Assembly: GCA_043808785.1 (NCBI GenBank)
Contig: JAZDEL010000002.1
Span: 90,001 to 122,000, forward strand
Direction of reading: 5' to 3'
Source of the DNA: Candidatus Iainarchaeum sp.
GTDB lineage: Archaea > Iainarchaeota > Iainarchaeia > Iainarchaeales > JAZDEL01
Length of the DNA stretch: 32,000 nucleotides
Both the position numbers and the translations under genes were made by a program. The notes under the pieces were generated by a model that was not told the DNA's origin, did not search any database, and saw nothing but the letters and a program-made list of their open reading frames with translations. Of the stretch, positions 417 to 9,180 are shown one piece after another. Within the stretch, counting starts at the first letter, position 1. Each line of letters opens with the position of its first letter.

Positions 417-1064
417 CTAAGCCGCTACGCCAAAAAACGCAAGAATTGCCCTGAAAAAGAAAACCCCTATTCCTGCCGTTGCAAACATCACGCCCCATAT
501 CCAGGGCTCCCAGAGCATCACCTTCTTGCCGTCAAGCGGGCCGACAGGCAGGAGATTAAATAGCGCGAGGAAGAAATTTATCTGCGCAATGAACATGAAA
601 ATTGTGCCAAGCGTCTGGTTCCATGAAAACAGCACCGTGAGCAGCATGAAAACGAAGGCCACAACGATGTTTGTCGCCGGCCCCGCTGCTGAAATAATCC
701 CGTTCTGCCTCCTCGTTATGTGCGGCCCGTATATGTAAACCGCCCCGGGCGCGGCAAAAAGGAAGCCGAAAAATGCGGAAACAAGCGCGAACATCAGCCC
801 GAGGCTCCACGCCCTGTATTCGGCGTGCGCCTTGAACATCCTCGCAACCTGCCTGTGCGCAAGCTCGTGGAAAACGAAGCCCGTGCCGACGGCAATAAGC
901 GATACCGGGAGCAGCACGATAGTTGACGCGATGTTGAACAGCCCGTCCCCGAACAGGAACGAGAATGCGATGCTTATCGTGAGCCAACTAACTATCAAAT
1001 CTACTTTTTCATTTTTTCCGAGCAGTGGCATTCCATCACGCACAAATCCTGATGCAAAAACCAT
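417..1064 (-). CDS. Site-2 protease family (M50) intramembrane zinc metalloprotease
   Basis: HELAH (HExxH) lies in a TM helix, an LLPVGPLDG motif follows, and the protein is polytopic and hydrophobic. The ATG is at 1064; the ORF-track start at 1076 is TTG. Confidence 0.85.
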   Translation of the reverse strand: MVFASGFVRDGMPLLGKNEKVDLIVSWLTISIAFSFLFGDGLFNIASTIVLLPVSLIAVGTGFVFHELAHRQVARMFKAHAEYRAWSLGLMFALVSAFFGFLFAAPGAVYIYGPHITRRQNGIISAAGPATNIVVAFVFMLLTVLFSWNQTLGTIFMFIAQINFFLALFNLLPVGPLDGKKVMLWEPWIWGVMFATAGIGVFFFRAILAFFGVAA

Positions 1065-1092
1065 AAAAACAAGCAACCCTTGTCGCGGGTTT

Positions 1093-1143: not shown

Positions 1144-1175
1144 TACTTCGTCAATCAACGAAATATTTAACTAAC
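1144..1175 (+). promoter_or_regulatory. Imperfect palindrome TTCGTCAATCAACGAA fused to the TATA-like box ATATTTAA; putative promoter/operator of the 1203-2968 operon
   Basis: 27 of 32 nt match the module on the minus strand at 3596-3628. The ATG at 1203 is 32 nt past the TATA-like box. Confidence 0.6.
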
Positions 1176-1202
1176 CCTGCGAACAGGTTATTTTTGGTTT
1201 TT

Positions 1203-1781
1203 ATGCACAGGCGCGGGATTTTCACATTCGTCCTTGTCCTTCTCTTTATCCAGTCCGCCGCGGTAATGTCCGGCATTGCCGCGGAACAGCAGCGCTCCAT
1301 TTCCGATGCGCGCAGCCTTGCCCTGCAGATGGAGCGCGCAAGGCTTGTTAGGGAGGAGGTAGAGGTTGCGGTTGACCGCACGATTGGGCAAACAATGCTC
1401 GCTGAAATTTCCTCAGGCAACAAAAACCCCGCGGCAATCCGCGCAAAAATCGCGGAAAACCTTGTTTCGGTTTTCGGGCAGTTCGAGGATGCATACCCCG
1501 AAAACCCGAAGGTTGATTTTTTTGCCGGAAATTATTACGGGGGAGGGTACCTGCGCCTCCTGGGCACGGAAGGGGGCAAGCCGAAGGCGCGTGAACTGGA
1601 AAATTATTTCAGGGTTCTTGTATTGCATGCCGGCAGTAAGGCATATGCAGCGGAATTCACATACACGGGCGGGGAAATGAAAAGCAGGGTTCTTTATGCA
1701 AAGATAAGCACGGAGAGCTTCTCGCAGGTTTTCGTTATCCCCATCGGGTACAAGATTGCAATTAACGGAGTTGTGCCCTGA
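1203..1781 (+). CDS. Hypothetical pilin-like protein (N-terminal MHRRG/IFTFVLVLLF, class III signal-peptide-like)
   Basis: An internal ATG at 1203 was verified. It has a short basic leader, a Gly, then a hydrophobic helix. Its stop overlaps the next start (TGATG). Confidence 0.6.
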   Translation: MHRRGIFTFVLVLLFIQSAAVMSGIAAEQQRSISDARSLALQMERARLVREEVEVAVDRTIGQTMLAEISSGNKNPAAIRAKIAENLVSVFGQFEDAYPENPKVDFFAGNYYGGGYLRLLGTEGGKPKARELENYFRVLVLHAGSKAYAAEFTYTGGEMKSRVLYAKISTESFSQVFVIPIGYKIAINGVVP

Positions 1782-2125
1782 TGACGCTCGAGGCAATGCT
1801 TTCCTTCGCGCTCTTCCTCGCGCTCCTCGGAGCTTTTGCGGGAATAGAGGCGATGCAGTCCGCGAAGGCTTCCGAAGCCGCGTACAAATTCTCCGCGGAA
1901 CTCGAGAGCTGCAGGTGCGCGCTTGTTATAGATTCCTTCTATGCGAATTCCGGCGGCGCGCTGCAGGGCTTCGGTTCCTCGTGCTATATGAAAGGCACAA
2001 ATTCTGTTGCCGCGCAGGTGCGCGGCTTCGAGAAGGAGAGCGCAATCCTCAACTCAGGCACCAAATTAATTCAGACTCCGCGCGGCACGCGGATGGAGGT
2101 GCAAGTGAATGAGCATTACAGGTAG
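1781..2125 (+). CDS. Hypothetical small protein with a pilin-like hydrophobic N-terminus (MTLEAMLSFALFLALLG)
   Basis: It is translationally coupled on both sides and has a single N-terminal hydrophobic helix with an early Glu. Confidence 0.5.
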   Translation: MTLEAMLSFALFLALLGAFAGIEAMQSAKASEAAYKFSAELESCRCALVIDSFYANSGGALQGFGSSCYMKGTNSVAAQVRGFEKESAILNSGTKLIQTPRGTRMEVQVNEHYR

Positions 2126-2615
2126 GCGCGGCATCGTGTTCTCCTTCGACCTTCTAATCGCGTTCATAGTTATGTGCCTCATCCTTTGCCTCATCCTCGT
2201 GAACATGAACCTGCGCGCGGATTCCGCGGTTTCCGCGCAGCGCTCTTTCGCGCTGCAGCATGCCGCGCTCTCCGTTGCCGACACGCTTGTGCAGAACGCC
2301 GACCTGAACAATCCCGCGCTCGGTTCCGCATATTTCGGCGAGGATAAGCGCAGGGTTTTCGGGAATGTTATTGACGGCACGCTGCTTGCAAAGGCGGACT
2401 TCGCAGGCATTAGCCTTGGCAAAGGCATTTTTCTGAAGGAAGTTTCACTGCGCTACAAAAGCGGGGAGTACGGGCAAATTCACCGTTCCCCTTTGCCCGC
2501 GGGGAGTTGCACCGCTGCGGAGCGGTTCGTTGTTGTGAAAGGCGCGGCAATTGCAAAAGGCGCTACGGAGGAAAAGGCGATTCTCACGGTTGTCGCCTGC
2601 GAGGGGGGCATCTGA
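2109..2615 (+). CDS. Hypothetical pilin-like protein (MSITGRRG/IVFSFDLLIAFIV)
   Basis: It has an RRG motif followed by a hydrophobic helix. It overlaps the upstream gene by 17 nt and the downstream gene by 1 nt. Confidence 0.6.
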   Translation: MSITGRRGIVFSFDLLIAFIVMCLILCLILVNMNLRADSAVSAQRSFALQHAALSVADTLVQNADLNNPALGSAYFGEDKRRVFGNVIDGTLLAKADFAGISLGKGIFLKEVSLRYKSGEYGQIHRSPLPAGSCTAAERFVVVKGAAIAKGATEEKAILTVVACEGGI

Positions 2616-2968
2616 TGAACGCAAGCGCCTTCCACCTGGGCATTGAGGCTGTGTTCAGCCTCCTCGTGCTCGCACTGCTCCTGTCCGCACCTGTTCCTGC
2701 AGCTGACTCCTCCCTCTCGCGCCTCCAGCTCCTGCAGAAACAGCAGGATTTGCTTGCAGTATGGGTTGCCTTCGGGAACCCTGATGCGGAAACCATGCGT
2801 GCGGATTTTGTTTTTGTTTTCCCCGGGAGGGCCGGCATTATCGGATTTGCGGGGGATAAATTTGAAATCAATTTGCCTCCCGAGGGTTGCACGCGCAGCA
2901 CTGCAAGTGCCCGCTATCTCGACGGCACGCTTCGCCTGCGGGAAATAACCCTGACCGTATTTTGCTGA
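2615..2968 (+). CDS. Hypothetical pilin-like protein (MNASAFHLG/IEAVFSLLVLALLL)
   Basis: An ATG at 2615 was verified and overlaps the preceding TGA. It has an N-terminal hydrophobic helix with Glu near the putative cleavage site. Confidence 0.55.
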   Translation: MNASAFHLGIEAVFSLLVLALLLSAPVPAADSSLSRLQLLQKQQDLLAVWVAFGNPDAETMRADFVFVFPGRAGIIGFAGDKFEINLPPEGCTRSTASARYLDGTLRLREITLTVFC

Positions 2969-2980
2969 TGTTCCGCGCGC

Positions 2981-3409
2981 CTACCCGAATTTTGCCAGGA
3001 TTTTACCCGAACTTTTCACAAGCGCGATTTTGAATTTCCTTTCCATTGTTTTCGCGCCGCCGCTGAAAATTATTTCGACAGGCATCTCCGCGGAAAGTTC
3101 CTTTCGCTTGCCGAGTTCTTCGCTTTCAACAGCAACGAAAATTTCCCTCCCTCTTGCCGAAATTTCCCACTTTCCCAAAGGTTCCGCCTCTAACCCCCTT
3201 GACGACCCTTCCCCGAAGTTCTGCAGTTCTCCGGCCGCGGCCTCCGCCTTCCAGAGGAAAAGTTCCGCAGCCCTTGCATCCATCGCGAAAATCCCTGCGG
3301 CATAAACCCCGCCTAATGAGGGCAGGATGAAAGCAAGGAACGAGAAAAAAACCGCGAGTACGAGGAGATACTCTATGCTCGCCTGCCCGCGAACCCGCGG
3401 CGCGCTCAT
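2981..3409 (-). CDS. Archaeal type IV pilin-like protein with a class III signal peptide (MSAPRVRGQ/ASIEYLLVLAVFF)
   Basis: It shows the canonical archaeal prepilin N-terminus: basic leader, GQ, S-x-E-Y-L, then a hydrophobic helix. Its start overlaps the stop of the upstream small pilin gene (ATGA). Confidence 0.75.
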   Translation of the reverse strand: MSAPRVRGQASIEYLLVLAVFFSFLAFILPSLGGVYAAGIFAMDARAAELFLWKAEAAAGELQNFGEGSSRGLEAEPLGKWEISARGREIFVAVESEELGKRKELSAEMPVEIIFSGGAKTMERKFKIALVKSSGKILAKFG

Positions 3410-3576
3410 ATGTCGTCTATCTCCTTGAATATGTCGCCTGTTTTCTTCTCGATTACCTGCGAGCCTTTCGCCGTCGTTTTCTGCAGCTGCGTCACGAGGA
3501 GAAGCACTATTGCAACAACAGCGGCAAGCACTATTATGAGTTCAACTGAAATCTGGGCTTTTTCTTCATTAAGCAT
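3406..3576 (-). CDS. Small (56 aa) class III signal-peptide pilin-like protein; not in the supplied ORF track
   Basis: Manual minus-strand translation gives MLNEEKAQISVELIIVLAAVVAIVLLLVTQLQKTTAKGSQVIEKKTGDIFKEIDDI*. The KAQ/ISVELIIV N-terminus is typical of short archaeal class III signal-peptide proteins. Confidence 0.7.
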   Translation of the reverse strand: MLNEEKAQISVELIIVLAAVVAIVLLLVTQLQKTTAKGSQVIEKKTGDIFKEIDDI

Positions 3577-3595
3577 GCAGATAATTGACCGCGAA

Positions 3596-3628
3596 CCTTA
3601 TTTAAATATTTCGTCAATTGACGAACTA
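3596..3628 (-). promoter_or_regulatory. Perfect 16-nt palindrome TTCGTCAATTGACGAA (3610-3625) fused to a TATA-like box (minus-strand ATATTTAA, 3602-3609); putative promoter/operator of the small-pilin operon
   Basis: The palindrome directly abuts the stop codon of the ArsR-like gene. The ATG at 3576 is 25 nt past the TATA-like box, which fits a leaderless transcript. Confidence 0.65.
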
Positions 3629-4324
3629 ATCAGGAACGAGTTTTTTGCAGTATTTTATAAGCGCATTTATGTCCTGCAAAGTGAAGTTCCTGTCAATCGC
3701 AGAAGCCGCACTTTCTATGGCTGAGCAGTCATCCTCTGTAAACAGCCTTCCGCCTATGGTTCCTGTGCCCTCAGCAATGCCAGTTGCAATGCCGCCTTCG
3801 GTTGCAGAGCCGCCCGCGTCCGGCACTGTTTCCCCCTTTCCCCCGCCCTGCACGACTTCGCTTGTTTCCTCCGCCTCCCTGTTGCCCGCGCCCTTTTCCG
3901 CGGCAGCAGGCACGGCAAATGCAGGTTCGGTTCCGCCAGCATCCGTGAGGGCAGGGCCCTGTGCTGCGGGAATCCCCTGCATGCCCATATTCGAGAACAT
4001 TATCGCCATAATCCCCACAAGCGCTACAAGCGTTGCGCCAAGGACAATCAGTATATGCGTCTGGTTCTGCTCCGCATCAGCTATGCCTATTCCCTTGCCA
4101 GTGAGCGCGTAATATTTCCACTTCCTTCCTTCGTCCACGCGCTCTATGAAGCCCTTGTCCTGCAGCATCTGCAGGTGCTGTTTCGCGCTCGGCGCGGCAA
4201 TCCCCATTTTAGCGGAAATCTCGCTAAGGGTATGCCTGCGTTCCTTAAGCAGTTTGAGTATCTTTACGCGCGCGTCCGAACTGAGCGCCTTAAACTCTCC
4301 GGATGAAATAGTTATGTCCGCCAT
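3626..4324 (-). CDS. Membrane-tethered ArsR-family winged-helix transcription regulator
   Basis: The N-terminus LSSDARVKILKLLKERRHTLSEISAKMGIAAPSAKQHLQMLQDKGFIERV...KYYALT is an ArsR-type wHTH. One TM helix follows (ILIVLGATLVALVGIMAIMF), then a Gly/Ala/Glu-rich linker and a small C-terminal domain with 2 Cys. Confidence 0.8.
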   Translation of the reverse strand: MADITISSGEFKALSSDARVKILKLLKERRHTLSEISAKMGIAAPSAKQHLQMLQDKGFIERVDEGRKWKYYALTGKGIGIADAEQNQTHILIVLGATLVALVGIMAIMFSNMGMQGIPAAQGPALTDAGGTEPAFAVPAAAEKGAGNREAEETSEVVQGGGKGETVPDAGGSATEGGIATGIAEGTGTIGGRLFTEDDCSAIESAASAIDRNFTLQDINALIKYCKKLVPD

Positions 4325-4339
4325 TGCAACAACCCGCGC

Positions 4340-4654
4340 CTAAAATACTATTATAAGCAAAATAAGCAGCGCAAAAACCGCGAGCGCAAACGCCCTGCTG
4401 TAATACGCCATCAGCCCGAGCACTGCAGGCGCGATGAGCAGCCATACGCCGAGCTCGTGCTGCCTCGCGGTTATAACCGAGCCGTAAACCGCCCCTGCGG
4501 AAAACAGCAGGAAAAGGAAAGCCACAAAGCTGCTTATCTGCTTGGTTACGTATTCGAGGACCTTCTCGACCCAGCCGTCGACCCTGCCCTTGCCCGAAGC
4601 CTTGCCTTCCGCGGCATGCGCATCCCCGTGAGCCTCTGCAGCGTGTTCAGACAT
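4340..4654 (-). CDS. Hypothetical small membrane protein (about 3 TM helices, His/Ala-rich N-terminus)
   Basis: ATG verified. It has hydrophobic segments and lies 15 nt upstream of the ArsR-like gene on the same strand. Confidence 0.6.
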   Translation of the reverse strand: MSEHAAEAHGDAHAAEGKASGKGRVDGWVEKVLEYVTKQISSFVAFLFLLFSAGAVYGSVITARQHELGVWLLIAPAVLGLMAYYSRAFALAVFALLILLIIVF

Positions 4655-4760
4655 ATGCCTTACCCATCTAATCGCGGATGTGAAACATTAAAAACCTTTC
4701 ATTTTTGGAAGGGCAAGCCCTGCTGCGCATAGCCAGGCTGTGCTGCAAAGCCTGCGCGCG

Positions 4761-5594
4761 TCATTTCAGCCCTGTGTAATATTTCTGCATAAGCAGTGCA
4801 TCCCCCTCCAGATTCGGGCTCTCGCATATCACAACGCCCGAAACCCCGAAACCTTTCAGCGCGGAAAGCATTGCCTTGTATTTGAAATCCGAATCCTCGA
4901 GGTTCAAATGGTTCCTTTCCCCCTTTTGCGAATAGTTTATTCCCGAAACATGCATCTGCAGGTTTTGGAGGAATTTTTTGTCCGCGGAAGCGATGTTCTG
5001 CAAAACATGCTCAAAATCTTTTTCGGTTTTCATGCATCCGTTGCCCCGCGCATGCAGATGCGCGAAATCTATCATAGGCTCCAAACCCTTCACGCGTTCG
5101 CAAAGTTCCAGCGTTTCCTCCAATGAACCCAACTGCGAACCCTTTCCCGTTGTTTCAGGGGCGAGCGTTATTTTTATTTTTTCCTTGCGCATTTCCTCGA
5201 TTATTTCCTCTAGCGCCCGCACAACGTTGCCAAGCGCCTCCCCCTTCTCCATGCCTCCGTAAAACGCGGGGTGAAATGTTACCTTCCTTGCGCCCGCGAG
5301 CGCGCCAATGCGCGCGCTGTCGAGTATGCGCTTCTTGCTTGCCTCTATCTTTGCCTTTTCCTTAGAATTCAAATTTATATAATAAGGCGCGTGCACGCTG
5401 AGCACGATGTTGTTTTTCTCCGCCGCCCTGCGCACCTCTTCCGCCGCAGCCTTCCCCATGTGCACGCCGTAAACGAACTCAAGTTCCATTGCACCCAGCC
5501 CGAGCGAGCGCACCCGCGCTATCGCCTCGGCAGAACCCCTGCCTTTCGCGCTGTGCGGAGCGCCCGCCGTGCCGAACAGTATTTTTCCAGGCAT
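4761..5594 (-). CDS. nfo: Endonuclease IV (AP endonuclease family 2, TIM barrel)
   Basis: Contains the SVHAPYYINLNS signature, later HVSGINYS...NHLNLEDSD, and His/Asp/Glu metal ligands. The ATG is at 5594; the 5639 start is GTG and would cover the shared promoter. Confidence 0.88.
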   Translation of the reverse strand: MPGKILFGTAGAPHSAKGRGSAEAIARVRSLGLGAMELEFVYGVHMGKAAAEEVRRAAEKNNIVLSVHAPYYINLNSKEKAKIEASKKRILDSARIGALAGARKVTFHPAFYGGMEKGEALGNVVRALEEIIEEMRKEKIKITLAPETTGKGSQLGSLEETLELCERVKGLEPMIDFAHLHARGNGCMKTEKDFEHVLQNIASADKKFLQNLQMHVSGINYSQKGERNHLNLEDSDFKYKAMLSALKGFGVSGVVICESPNLEGDALLMQKYYTGLK

Positions 5595-5648
5595 GCGAAT
5601 ATGCAATGCACCAAAAGCCTTTAATCCCCTTTCGCGCACCTAATTGAT

Positions 5649-6791
5649 ATGCCAAAGAACATCTTCTCCCGCACCAGCAGGGAGAGGCACATATTCCGCA
5701 ACGAGCAGTATCTCGCGCCGGAATTCCTGCCCGAAAAACTGCCGCACAGGGATTCCGAAATCGACACTATGGTTTACGCATTCAATCCTGTCCTGCGGGG
5801 CTCGAAGCCGCAGAACCTTTTTGTTTTCGGCCCCCCTGGGACGGGAAAAACCGCTTCCGTGAAATTCGTCCTCGCGCAGCTGGAGGAGCACTCCGACCGC
5901 GCAAAAATGCTCTACATAAATTGCTTCCAGCACGAGAGCAGGCATTCGGTTCTTGCCAAACTCACGAATTTTCTGGGAATGCCTGTGCCAAGGCGCGGCC
6001 TGGCAACGGATGAAACCTACTCTAAAATGGTGGAGGCAATGCGCAAGGCATCCTTTGCACCAATAATCATCCTTGACGAGGTGGACAATATCGCTGGCGC
6101 GGAGGAGCAGAGCCGCCTCCTGTATGACCTGCTGCGCGTTGCGGAGCAGGAAAAGAAGCAGCTCGGCTTAGTGCTTGTTTCAAATGACGCCGCATTCACA
6201 GCGCGCCTCGATGCGCGCGTGAAAAGTTCGCTCGCTGCCGAGAACCTTGCCTTCGAGCCCTACTCGCCGCAGCAACTGAAGGACATTCTGCGCGAGAGGG
6301 CGGGGTACGCGTTTGAACAGCGTGTTCTCGAGGATGATGTAATTAACGTTGCCGCAGCGCACGCTGCAAAGCTCGGCGGCGATGCGCGCATCGCAATAGA
6401 GTGCCTCCTGAAGGCGGGAAGGAATGCCGAGCGTGATAACGCGGCAAGCGTAACCATCGCGCACCTGAAGCGTGCCTTCGAAAGCATTGATTCCCTCCCT
6501 ACCCTCAAAAAAATCCGCGGCCTGAACGAAAACGAAAAAAACCTGCTAAGGGTTATTGTGCAGGCGCAGGAGGAAAGCATACTTTCAGGCGACCTTTACA
6601 AAAAGTACAATTCATCGGTTCCCAAGGGTTCAAAAGCGCTGACCGAGCGCAGGGTGCGCGACTTCCTGAACAACCTTGAAAAGCAGGGTCTTGTTGAGAT
6701 AAGCGCGGTTGATTTGGGCAACAAGGGCAAGACCCGCAGCATACGCCTGAGGGTTGCGAAGCAGCTTGCACTGCGGGAACTTGGGAACTGA
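5649..6791 (+). CDS. cdc6: Orc1/Cdc6 replication initiator
   Basis: Contains Walker A GPPGTGKT, Walker B IIILDEVD, a SNDxxF sensor region and a C-terminal winged helix. The 380-aa length is typical. Confidence 0.95.
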   Translation: MPKNIFSRTSRERHIFRNEQYLAPEFLPEKLPHRDSEIDTMVYAFNPVLRGSKPQNLFVFGPPGTGKTASVKFVLAQLEEHSDRAKMLYINCFQHESRHSVLAKLTNFLGMPVPRRGLATDETYSKMVEAMRKASFAPIIILDEVDNIAGAEEQSRLLYDLLRVAEQEKKQLGLVLVSNDAAFTARLDARVKSSLAAENLAFEPYSPQQLKDILRERAGYAFEQRVLEDDVINVAAAHAAKLGGDARIAIECLLKAGRNAERDNAASVTIAHLKRAFESIDSLPTLKKIRGLNENEKNLLRVIVQAQEESILSGDLYKKYNSSVPKGSKALTERRVRDFLNNLEKQGLVEISAVDLGNKGKTRSIRLRVAKQLALRELGN

Positions 6792-7980: not shown

Positions 7981-9180
7981 TCAGTTCTTCAGCTGTATCT
8001 TCACGACATCGTTGTTCTGCAGTTCGTGCTCCTTCCCAAGTTTCTTCCCGCTCCTGCAATCTACAGCCGCAATGAACCTCGGCCCGAAATCCGTGTGCAC
8101 GGCAACGGCAAGGTCGTATGCGTTCGAGCCTTTCGGAAGAAGGTATGCATCCGGCAGAACATTCCCCTTTGCCGAGCACCATTTGTTCGCGTCCTGCACC
8201 GGGTAAACCACAATGAGATTCAGCAGTTCGAACGCCGTCCTGTTTATTGCCTCCTGAACTCCCGTTGAACCATATGCATCGAGAACCTTTTTTTGTATGA
8301 ACCCGAGCGCGTTTTTTTGTTTTTCCCCGAGCGTGCCTTCGTTTGCAACCTCGAACTTCCCCTCCCCTGGCACGTATTTTATTGCCCCTCCCCTCTCCGC
8401 CTTCCTCAGCGCGAGTTCAGCCTCGCTGCACGTGGGGACAATTATCCTGTCGGGGAATTTTTGCTTAAGTTTTTCATAATTCTCCTTAGCGCCAGGCACA
8501 TCAATCTTGTTCGCGACAATAACAATCGGCTTCGACTTTGCGCGCACGGCTTTGCTGAACTCAAGTATTTCCTCCTCGCCCCACATATCTGGCCTTTCCG
8601 AGAATTCGCCCTCCTTGAGCACGTGCTTCGCTTCGGCCTCGGTTATCCCTAGCCCCGATAACTGCTCCGCAAGCGCCGCCGCCGGGCCGCGTGCATCGAG
8701 CCCGGCCTTCTTGCTCAGGCTGCGCCAGTTTTTCTCCAGAATTCCCTTAATCCACCACGCGATTTCATTCTCAAGGAATTCGACGTAATCGCAAGGGTCG
8801 GCAGAGCCCCTTTCGACAACATTCCCTTCCAAATCCACGGAGCCGCTGGCATCCAGCACATGAATAAGCGCTTTCGCCTGCATTAAATCCGAGAGGAACT
8901 GGTTTCCGAGCCCCCTGCCTTCATGTGCCCCCCTGACAAGCCCCGCAACATCTATAAGTTCAATCGGCACCAGCCTCCACCCGTCCATACATTTGCTGTT
9001 CACGGGCTGGCACTTAACTCCCTTCTCATCATGTATGCACTTCGTCTTTACCCAGCTTACCGCGCGGTTCGGCTTAATTGTCGTGAACGGCCTGTTTGCA
9101 ATAGGCACATCGACAAGCGACGCCGCGCTGAAGAACGTGCTCTTGCCCGTGTTCGGGAAGCCTACGATCCCTATGAGCAT
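7981..9180 (-). CDS. ychF: YchF/OLA1-family P-loop GTPase/ATPase with a C-terminal TGS-like domain
   Basis: Contains G1 GFPNTGKST, G4 NKID, and a C-terminal beta-grasp tail (DVVKIQLK). Confidence 0.9.
   Translation of the reverse strand: MLIGIVGFPNTGKSTFFSAASLVDVPIANRPFTTIKPNRAVSWVKTKCIHDEKGVKCQPVNSKCMDGWRLVPIELIDVAGLVRGAHEGRGLGNQFLSDLMQAKALIHVLDASGSVDLEGNVVERGSADPCDYVEFLENEIAWWIKGILEKNWRSLSKKAGLDARGPAAALAEQLSGLGITEAEAKHVLKEGEFSERPDMWGEEEILEFSKAVRAKSKPIVIVANKIDVPGAKENYEKLKQKFPDRIIVPTCSEAELALRKAERGGAIKYVPGEGKFEVANEGTLGEKQKNALGFIQKKVLDAYGSTGVQEAINRTAFELLNLIVVYPVQDANKWCSAKGNVLPDAYLLPKGSNAYDLAVAVHTDFGPRFIAAVDCRSGKKLGKEHELQNNDVVKIQLKN

Follow-up and report, generated by a model that had tools for sequence, protein, structure and literature searches.

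We analysed a 32,000-nucleotide stretch of DNA (the window) from Candidatus Iainarchaeum sp. (assembly GCA_043808785.1, contig JAZDEL010000002.1, positions 90,001 to 122,000) that carries a gene for a putative membrane-tethered ArsR-type transcription regulator set among pilin genes. The regulator gene (3626–4324, stop codon included, minus strand) encodes 232 amino acids and is present in a single copy in the source genome. Its TAG stop codon (3626–3628) directly abuts a perfect 16-nt palindrome, TTCGTCAATTGACGAA (3610–3625), which has the form TCGTC-N4-GACGA, is kept in relatives, and is the putative operator of the promoter of the next gene, pil56. The palindrome is followed by ATATTTAAATAAGG (3596–3609, minus strand), which reads as a TATA-like element joined to a transcription factor B recognition element (BRE); the likely BRE, CGAAATA, has its first four bases in common with the palindrome. 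Because the pil56 ATG (3576) lies 33 nt past the palindrome, the pil56 transcript is likely leaderless or nearly so, and the operator would likely be centred near -42.

The product of pil56 (3406–3576, minus strand) is a 56-residue pilin with the class III signal peptide KAQ/ISVEL (Pfam Class_IIIsignal, E=8.8e-4, under the cut-off). Its orthologues are 55–73% identical and stand beside an M50 protease gene in many families, and its topology and short outside part are those of a site-2 protease (S2P) substrate. A second pilin-like gene, pil142 (2981–3409, minus strand; 142 amino acids, RGQ/ASIEYL), overlaps pil56 by 4 nt. Facing this pair are four overlapping pilin-like genes (1203–2968, plus strand) encoding 192, 114, 168 and 117 amino acids, for which relatives carry an orthologous block. 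A second copy of the operator, TTCGTCAATCAACGAA (1147–1162; 14 of 16 positions match), lies 40 nt before the ATG at 1203 of this four-gene operon. It is followed by ATATTTAAC, with the same ATATTTAA as at the first copy, and the TATA-like element of the operon is ATATTTAACTAACC (1163–1176, plus strand).

The N-terminal part of the regulator matches Pfam HTH_5 (ArsR) over residues 17–61 (E=9.5e-9; 35.5 bits, cut-off 22) and HTH_20 (31.3 bits, cut-off 27); the score for the metalloregulator subfamily NCBIfam NF033788 (48.2) is under its cut-off of 55. A structure was predicted with AlphaFold2 (AF2) from an alignment of 42 homologues that is only three sequences deep over the C-terminal tail. In this model, helices 8–13, 17–28, 33–40 and 44–56, strands 60–64 and 70–74, and a helix 76–116 are predicted with a local confidence score (pLDDT) above 90. 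The winged helix-turn-helix (wHTH; residues 8–74, 4103–4303, minus strand), which is predicted to be cytoplasmic, was matched by Foldseek to NolR, CzrA, CadC, HlyU, SmtB, Phr and AspA with target TM-scores of 0.7–0.8 and up to 0.81. The best solved relative by sequence is Phr, an ArsR-family heat-shock regulator (PDB 2p4w; E=1.6e-5). The metal and thiol ligand sites of sensing ArsR/SmtB proteins are absent, in that residues 1–88 contain no Cys and helix 76–95 lacks the His/Asp/Glu ligand pattern. The regulator therefore appears to be ArsR-like in fold and not a classical metal sensor.

The only hydrophobic segment of the protein, at about residues 89–112 (3989–4060, minus strand; Kyte-Doolittle peak 2.82), forms the predicted transmembrane (TM) helix. 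It begins 14 residues past the wing, with no domain in between, and AF2 places the wHTH exit and the TM in one continuous helix (76–116, pLDDT 92–96). Next comes a low-complexity linker (residues 113–195, 3740–3988, minus strand) whose 83 residues include 20 Gly, 15 Ala, 9 Glu and 8 Thr, and the AF2 model is disordered over residues 117–196. The C-terminal tail (residues 196–232, 3629–3739, minus strand) contains Cys200, Cys226 and the sequon N213-F-T, and is modelled as two helices (197–206 and 216–229) at a low-confidence pLDDT of 60–79. A fold search with the whole regulator model gave matches on the wHTH only and none on the tail. Upstream of the regulator gene by 15 nt, on the same strand, lies a gene for a 104-residue protein (4340–4654, minus strand) with a His-rich N-terminus and three hydrophobic segments. 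The original prediction, made from the same DNA, is thus borne out as regards the ArsR-like winged helix and single TM helix, the Gly/Ala/Glu linker and two-Cys C-terminal part, the closely spaced three-TM gene, and the stop codon abutting the palindrome.

We infer that the wHTH lies inside the cell and that the linker and two-Cys tail lie outside, because the role of a wHTH is cytoplasmic, the net charge is +4 for the N-terminal domain and -10 for the part after the TM, and basic tails follow the second TM in those homologues that have one. With a DNA-binding domain and a predicted TM in one polypeptide, the protein falls within the class of transmembrane transcription regulators (TTRs), defined as having at least one such TM (PMC10269533).

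The palindrome was found twice in the window, where 0.16 occurrences are expected. Across the 1.42-Mb source genome, seven matches were counted (four perfect 16-mers and three near-perfect copies) against one for a reversed control, and all seven lie outside plausible genes with an AT-rich box within a few bases. The palindrome is therefore a real repeated promoter element, beyond chance. Beyond the two pilin promoters, one perfect copy (C8:29815, the prefix giving the contig) lies 36 nt before the ATG of a gene outside the window (C8:25521–29830) that encodes a 1,419-residue protein rich in Ser, Ala and Leu, which carries a signal peptide of the lipobox type (LTAGC) and is anchored by a C-terminal TM. 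This protein has no Pfam match and may be an S-layer or main surface protein. The palindrome is kept before orthologues of about 1,410 residues in three genomes (G001, G012 and G060), with the arms alone kept in a fourth (G002); this operator is conserved in 4–5 families. Another perfect copy (C2:60903) lies at the 3' end of the main pilus assembly locus, with an OB-fold gene and a TctA-like gene downstream. The positions of these copies suggest that the regulator may control a surface regulon and not the pilins alone, comprising the two pilin operons, the surface protein and the gene pair at the end of the pilus locus.

A search over 5.8 billion proteins returned 108 regulator homologues, mostly from 'Candidatus Diapherotrites' metagenome-assembled genomes (MAGs). 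We also sampled 201 relatives from the phylum (Diapherotrites/Iainarchaeota-type MAGs), 58 of them high-quality. Exactly one regulator orthologue was found in 165 of the 201 genomes, and in 56 of the 58 high-quality ones. Residues R19, K48 and H50 (the latter two in the recognition helix) and the wing G66-K68-W69-K70-Y71-Y72 are invariant across homologues. A TM follows the wHTH in all 105 homologues that bear the RKW wing motif. Next on the same strand after the orthologue is a gene with a pilin-type N-terminus in 17–18 of 26 informative loci, so that the co-occurrence with pilin genes anticipated from the source locus recurs among relatives.

In AT-rich relatives, genome-wide counts of the palindrome with up to two mismatches failed to separate from the control, and promoter windows were therefore scored against local background. 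Scored in this way, 12 regulator-bearing genomes of nine families carry the palindrome at both pilin promoters (11–16 of 16 positions, against a local 95th percentile of 10–12). At the promoter that bears the second copy, 25 bases of operator and TATA box are identical between the source genome and G060 (family f18). In families f8 and f13 the palindrome is retained at the pilin promoters although the regulator gene lies hundreds of kilobases away, which fits a trans-acting factor. The converse state is seen in three genomes. In two members of family f12, nothing stands between the small TM gene and pilA (the first gene of the four-gene operon's counterpart there) but a gap of about 70–80 nt, which represents a natural deletion of the regulator gene (L064 of G051, 8905–8973; L065 of G167, 3807–3889), and neither pilin promoter carries the palindrome. 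No regulator orthologue was found in G097 (f21), and a profile search of G051, G167 and G097 returned soluble ArsR paralogues and no regulator. Both pilin promoters in these three genomes score 8–9 of 16, which equals background. Family f10 has a regulator whose wing differs (DDGHKWKYIELT), and no recognisable operator.

Given the conserved operator, its retention where the regulator is distant, and the joint presence (12 genomes) and joint absence (three genomes) of the two, the regulator probably uses the palindrome as its operator. Our preferred interpretation, to which we assign a probability of roughly 0.6, is that the protein is a transmembrane transcription regulator that would bind the 16-bp palindrome and set a small cell-surface regulon from the membrane. 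An ArsR/SmtB-type wHTH in the cytoplasm would be held at the membrane by a TM helix continuing from the wHTH exit helix, with the linker and small two-Cys tail outside the cell. A dimer would bind TTCGTCAATTGACGAA, abutting the TATA box and overlapping the likely BRE by about 4 bp, and equivalent binding at the other sites would place the surface regulon under control from the membrane. The original prediction had tied the regulator to the pilin genes; this connection is upheld by the operators at both pilin promoters across families, and has to be widened to a candidate regulon that extends beyond the pilins. That prediction had also singled out the exact abutment of stop codon and palindrome, which holds in the source genome and not as a special feature. 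In relatives the spacing is 0–49 nt and the other pilin operon mostly follows the regulator, and the abutment therefore reflects genome compaction.

With respect to the direction of control, we lean slightly towards repression by occlusion of the BRE. ArsR/SmtB proteins are dimeric palindrome binders and mostly repressors, as is Phr; the TATA boxes are strong, and the BRE next to them that the operator overlaps is close to consensus; and lineages lacking both regulator and operator keep their pilin genes with intact TATA boxes. An activator of the kind of ArnR or EarA could likewise work from an operator centred near -42.

The outside part of the protein is where conservation is lowest. Mean column identity is 0.70 for the wHTH, 0.19 for the linker and 0.26 for the tail, and the FTEDDC...YC tail is common to only three homologues (the source protein, P0002 and P0003). 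About two thirds of the 105 homologues (approximately 65–70) carry a second C-terminal TM and a basic tail instead, and 24 have a different, unrelated Cys-rich end. The outside part is thus a lineage-specific decoration and no conserved sensory module, and the sensory exodomain proposed in the original prediction is not upheld. Moderate conservation is instead found in the first half of the TM, on its predicted cytoplasmic side, where the motif TxILIxL..IxLxG is kept at 0.55–0.86. A signal sensed within or at the membrane, for example the pool of unassembled pilin, is therefore more likely than a ligand-binding exodomain.

Several observations weigh against the proposal of a membrane-bound regulator acting through this operator. 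The palindrome is absent upstream of the regulator's own operon, where a putative TATA-like box, GAAAGGTTTTTAAT (4687–4700, minus strand), can be read about 36 nt before the ATG at 4654. PIN-like and GIY-YIG-like genes lie downstream of the perfect copy at C9:24817 and of one (C1:6802) of two copies that have a single mismatch. In family f8, a palindrome pair about 4.2 kb apart flanks genes for HMG-CoA synthase, HMG-CoA reductase and a ZIP transporter. Genome-wide, two-mismatch counts in AT-rich relatives are close to the reversed-control counts. G200 scores 12 of 16 at its pil56 promoter and no regulator was found in this 83% complete genome. The co-loss rests on two or three lineages represented by MAGs that are 74–89% complete. 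Related genomes are, moreover, not independent samples, and the adjacency may be inherited synteny. Finally, other wHTH proteins in the genome could bind the palindrome, including a soluble 179-residue protein with two ArsR-like wHTH repeats (match at C1:151289–151492, L007) that is the only other weak match to the regulator in the source genome.

These points bear most directly on an alternative in which the palindrome is the operator of another, soluble factor, and the regulator is adjacent through inherited gene order, regulating elsewhere or regulating nothing here. The site retained in G200, the palindromes before genes unrelated to the surface, and the regulator genes located outside the pilin block in families f8, f10, f13 and f17 are all in keeping with such a factor. 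However, the regulator and operator occur together in 12 genomes and are both absent from three, and a 16-bp palindrome suits a dimeric ArsR-type wHTH. The soluble tandem-wHTH paralogue is kept in G051 and G167 as well as in G200, and its persistence in operator-less genomes makes it a poor candidate. We therefore consider a soluble factor unlikely, and the membrane-bound regulator remains our preferred binder of the palindrome.

A different alternative arises from a gene that diverges from the pilin block and encodes a minimal M50 S2P of 219 amino acids (417–1076, minus strand; Peptidase_M50, E=7.3e-13) with intact HELAH and LDG motifs. In NCBIfam it has weak matches only, to intramembrane metalloproteases (daptide, YydH/LiaK) involved in the maturation of small peptides. 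Around the FtsX gene just upstream of the window, the genes present are cdc48, FtsX and M50, and no membrane-anchored wHTH was found there. Regulated intramembrane proteolysis would have the outside part of the regulator clipped, after which the M50 protease would cut the TM and the freed, soluble wHTH would bind the operators. The predicted N-in/C-out single pass would be the topology of an S2P substrate, the TM is conserved and contains Gly residues, and the two-TM hairpin of most homologues corresponds to the topology of SREBP. In at least 45 genomes, belonging to about 14 families, the M50 gene and the regulator share a contig and are 2.4–4.4 kb apart, and the M50 gene and a pilin operon have an operator-bearing divergent region in common. 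Such a mechanism would resemble that of TcpP with RseP (YaeL), of ATF6 and of SREBP; TcpP is cleaved by a site-2 protease (PMC11323476).

The distribution of the M50 gene argues against this alternative. It is found as a single copy in 197 of the 201 genomes, including lineages without the regulator, and adjoins the pilin block in every examined family that has one, staying beside pil56 where the regulator has moved or been lost; its orientation is nearly always divergent from that small pilin gene. The linkage is thus to the pilin block, and the pilins, especially the 56-residue one with its very short outside part, are equally plausible substrates. In addition, no site-1 protease was identified, and release plays no part in the action of ArnR and of many transmembrane regulators in bacteria (PMC6396743, PMC10269533). 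It is therefore improbable, and more so than a soluble factor, that the regulator works through proteolytic release. We hold the same strong reservation about the broader idea that the conserved block is an archaeal proteolysis circuit, in which the M50 protease either cuts the regulator TM or is titrated by tiny pilins of like topology, such that wHTH release or level would be set by pilus assembly or envelope state.

The 104-residue protein behaves like the M50 protease. Its gene, a conserved upstream neighbour of the regulator, remains at the head of the pilin block in f8, whose regulator gene is elsewhere, and in f12, which has lost it; both genes track the pilin block rather than the regulator. 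A role for the 104-residue protein as a TcpH- or ToxS-like partner of the regulator is weakened by this behaviour. Its N-terminus reads HGDAH and extends to about ten His in relatives (e.g. HGGHGDAHGG...); no Pfam or NCBIfam family matched this protein or the four pilin-like proteins.

A further alternative is that the regulator is a non-transcriptional membrane tether, anchoring surface-gene loci or incoming DNA in the manner of AspA. In its favour, AspA (an ArsR-like centromere binder) is among the structural matches and the gene stands in a type IV pilus context. Against it, the palindromes lie precisely at the BRE/TATA boxes of particular genes, where they are conserved, and number only about seven per genome, and the wHTH is predicted to be cytoplasmic, not outside where incoming DNA would first arrive. 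We regard a tether as very improbable.

As a membrane-bound transcription regulator, the protein would be a functional analogue of ArnR and ArnR1 of Sulfolobus acidocaldarius, which are membrane-bound one-component HTH regulators of archaeal type IV filaments (PMC6396743). Both systems are archaeal, use or would use short inverted repeats upstream of the core promoters of type IV filament genes, and affect or would affect several surface structures. However, the ArnR box is TCGAC-N5-GTCGA and is located at -43 to -84, whereas the element here is TCGTC-N4-GACGA and is a single palindrome overlapping the BRE. ArnR carries a cytoplasmic HAMP-like region and a sensor domain between its HTH and two C-terminal TMs (PMC6396743). 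In contrast, the regulator described here has an ArsR-type fold, a single TM immediately after the wHTH, no cytoplasmic sensor, and its variable part outside. The distinction from ArnR drawn in the original prediction is consistent with this comparison of published architecture descriptions, namely the lack of a HAMP or sensor domain and one TM in place of two.

Transmembrane regulators are common in archaea, at about four per genome (PMC10269533). Makarova et al. 2016 (PMC4858521) describe predicted regulators, some of them membrane-bound, near archaeal pilin and archaellin loci (arCOG00381; arCOG03067/pfam12840). The regulator in the window resembles this set in that pfam12840 (HTH_20) also matches it, a likeness based on a domain match and the published description. 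Those proteins are from haloarchaea and other euryarchaea, and they come with no defined operator or regulon; a search of the paper's main text finds mention of neither DPANN nor Diapherotrites nor ArsR.

Outside the archaea, ToxR, TcpP and CadC likewise combine an N-terminal cytoplasmic DNA-binding domain, a single TM and an outside C-terminus (PMC10269533, PMC11323476). They are activators with OmpR-type winged helices, whereas the present protein has an ArsR-type fold and faces archaeal TBP/TFB promoters. Regulators of this type also often have a small membrane partner encoded next door, whereas the small neighbour here tracks the pilin genes instead. The wHTH fold is the same as that of Phr of Pyrococcus furiosus, CzrA, CadC, NolR and HlyU, but Phr and the ArsR/SmtB repressors are soluble, whereas this regulator has a TM and an outside part and lacks the metal and thiol sites. 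Sensing of a pilin pool has a possible parallel in PilS-PilR of Pseudomonas aeruginosa, where TM segments of a membrane protein sense the pilin pool and set pilin transcription (PMC6058289, citing Kilmury and Burrows 2016). PilS-PilR is a two-component histidine kinase system with sigma-54, whereas one polypeptide would perform both tasks here, and we draw on it as a model and not as evidence.

To our knowledge, ArnR is the only archaeal membrane-bound regulator family that has been characterised, and transcription control in DPANN-type archaea is almost unstudied. The present system is a compact unit for such work, consisting of a wHTH of about 88 residues, a 16-bp operator, a candidate regulon of two pilin operons and a giant surface lipoprotein, and natural 'knock-out' lineages. 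If the regulator does bind the operator, it would show a minimal archaeon coupling its membrane to surface expression and would provide a handle on the conserved neighbouring S2P. A 2022 review lists no archaeal S2P substrate (PMC9263693). The proteolysis circuit, if true, would give an archaeal S2P its first natural substrate and its first physiological role, and would be a counterpart in prokaryotes of SREBP/ATF6 logic.

The palindrome pair of family f8 consists of TCGACAATTGACGA and ACGTCAATTGACGA in one genome (L057 of G016, 1820–6074) and of more degenerate copies in another (L058 of G031, 1892–6064). The flanked block also holds genes for a GltD-like protein and a small ribbon-helix-helix-like protein. 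The source genome encodes HMG-CoA synthase and reductase as well, and no palindrome was found at these genes (C6:90625–92971); SREBP-like control of lipid synthesis was therefore not built upon. The episymbiotic lifestyle assumed in the original prediction is conjectural.

In relatives, the gene for the small His-rich TM protein comes first and the regulator gene second, ahead of the four pilin-like genes; the pil142-pil56 pair, convergent with these four, and the divergent M50 gene complete the block. Families f1, f3, f4, f5 and f14 have this block, and f2 and f18 have a looser version of it. Relative to most relatives, the six-gene pilin block of the source genome (1147–3625) is inverted, such that the regulator is followed by pil56 here and mostly by pilA elsewhere, and the M50 gene here faces pilA192; a few other lineages are likewise flipped. 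Both orientations occur among several families (f1, f5, f15 and f18 versus f3, f4, f5 and f14). The ends of the inverted segment are inverted copies of the operator plus TATA box, which suggests inversion by recombination between these copies. One relative (L012 of G048, 2199–2826) has an insertion that separates the regulator from pil56/pil142 and consists of a PIN-domain gene with a small partner gene, carried by the opposite strand. The main type IV pilus assembly locus (C2:59275–69794), about 30 kb upstream of the window, encodes a 1,109-residue ATPase, two TadC-like proteins, a 61-residue pilin, an A24 prepilin peptidase, two more pilins and a DUF2101 protein, and the ATPase appears to carry a LAGLIDADG-type intein.

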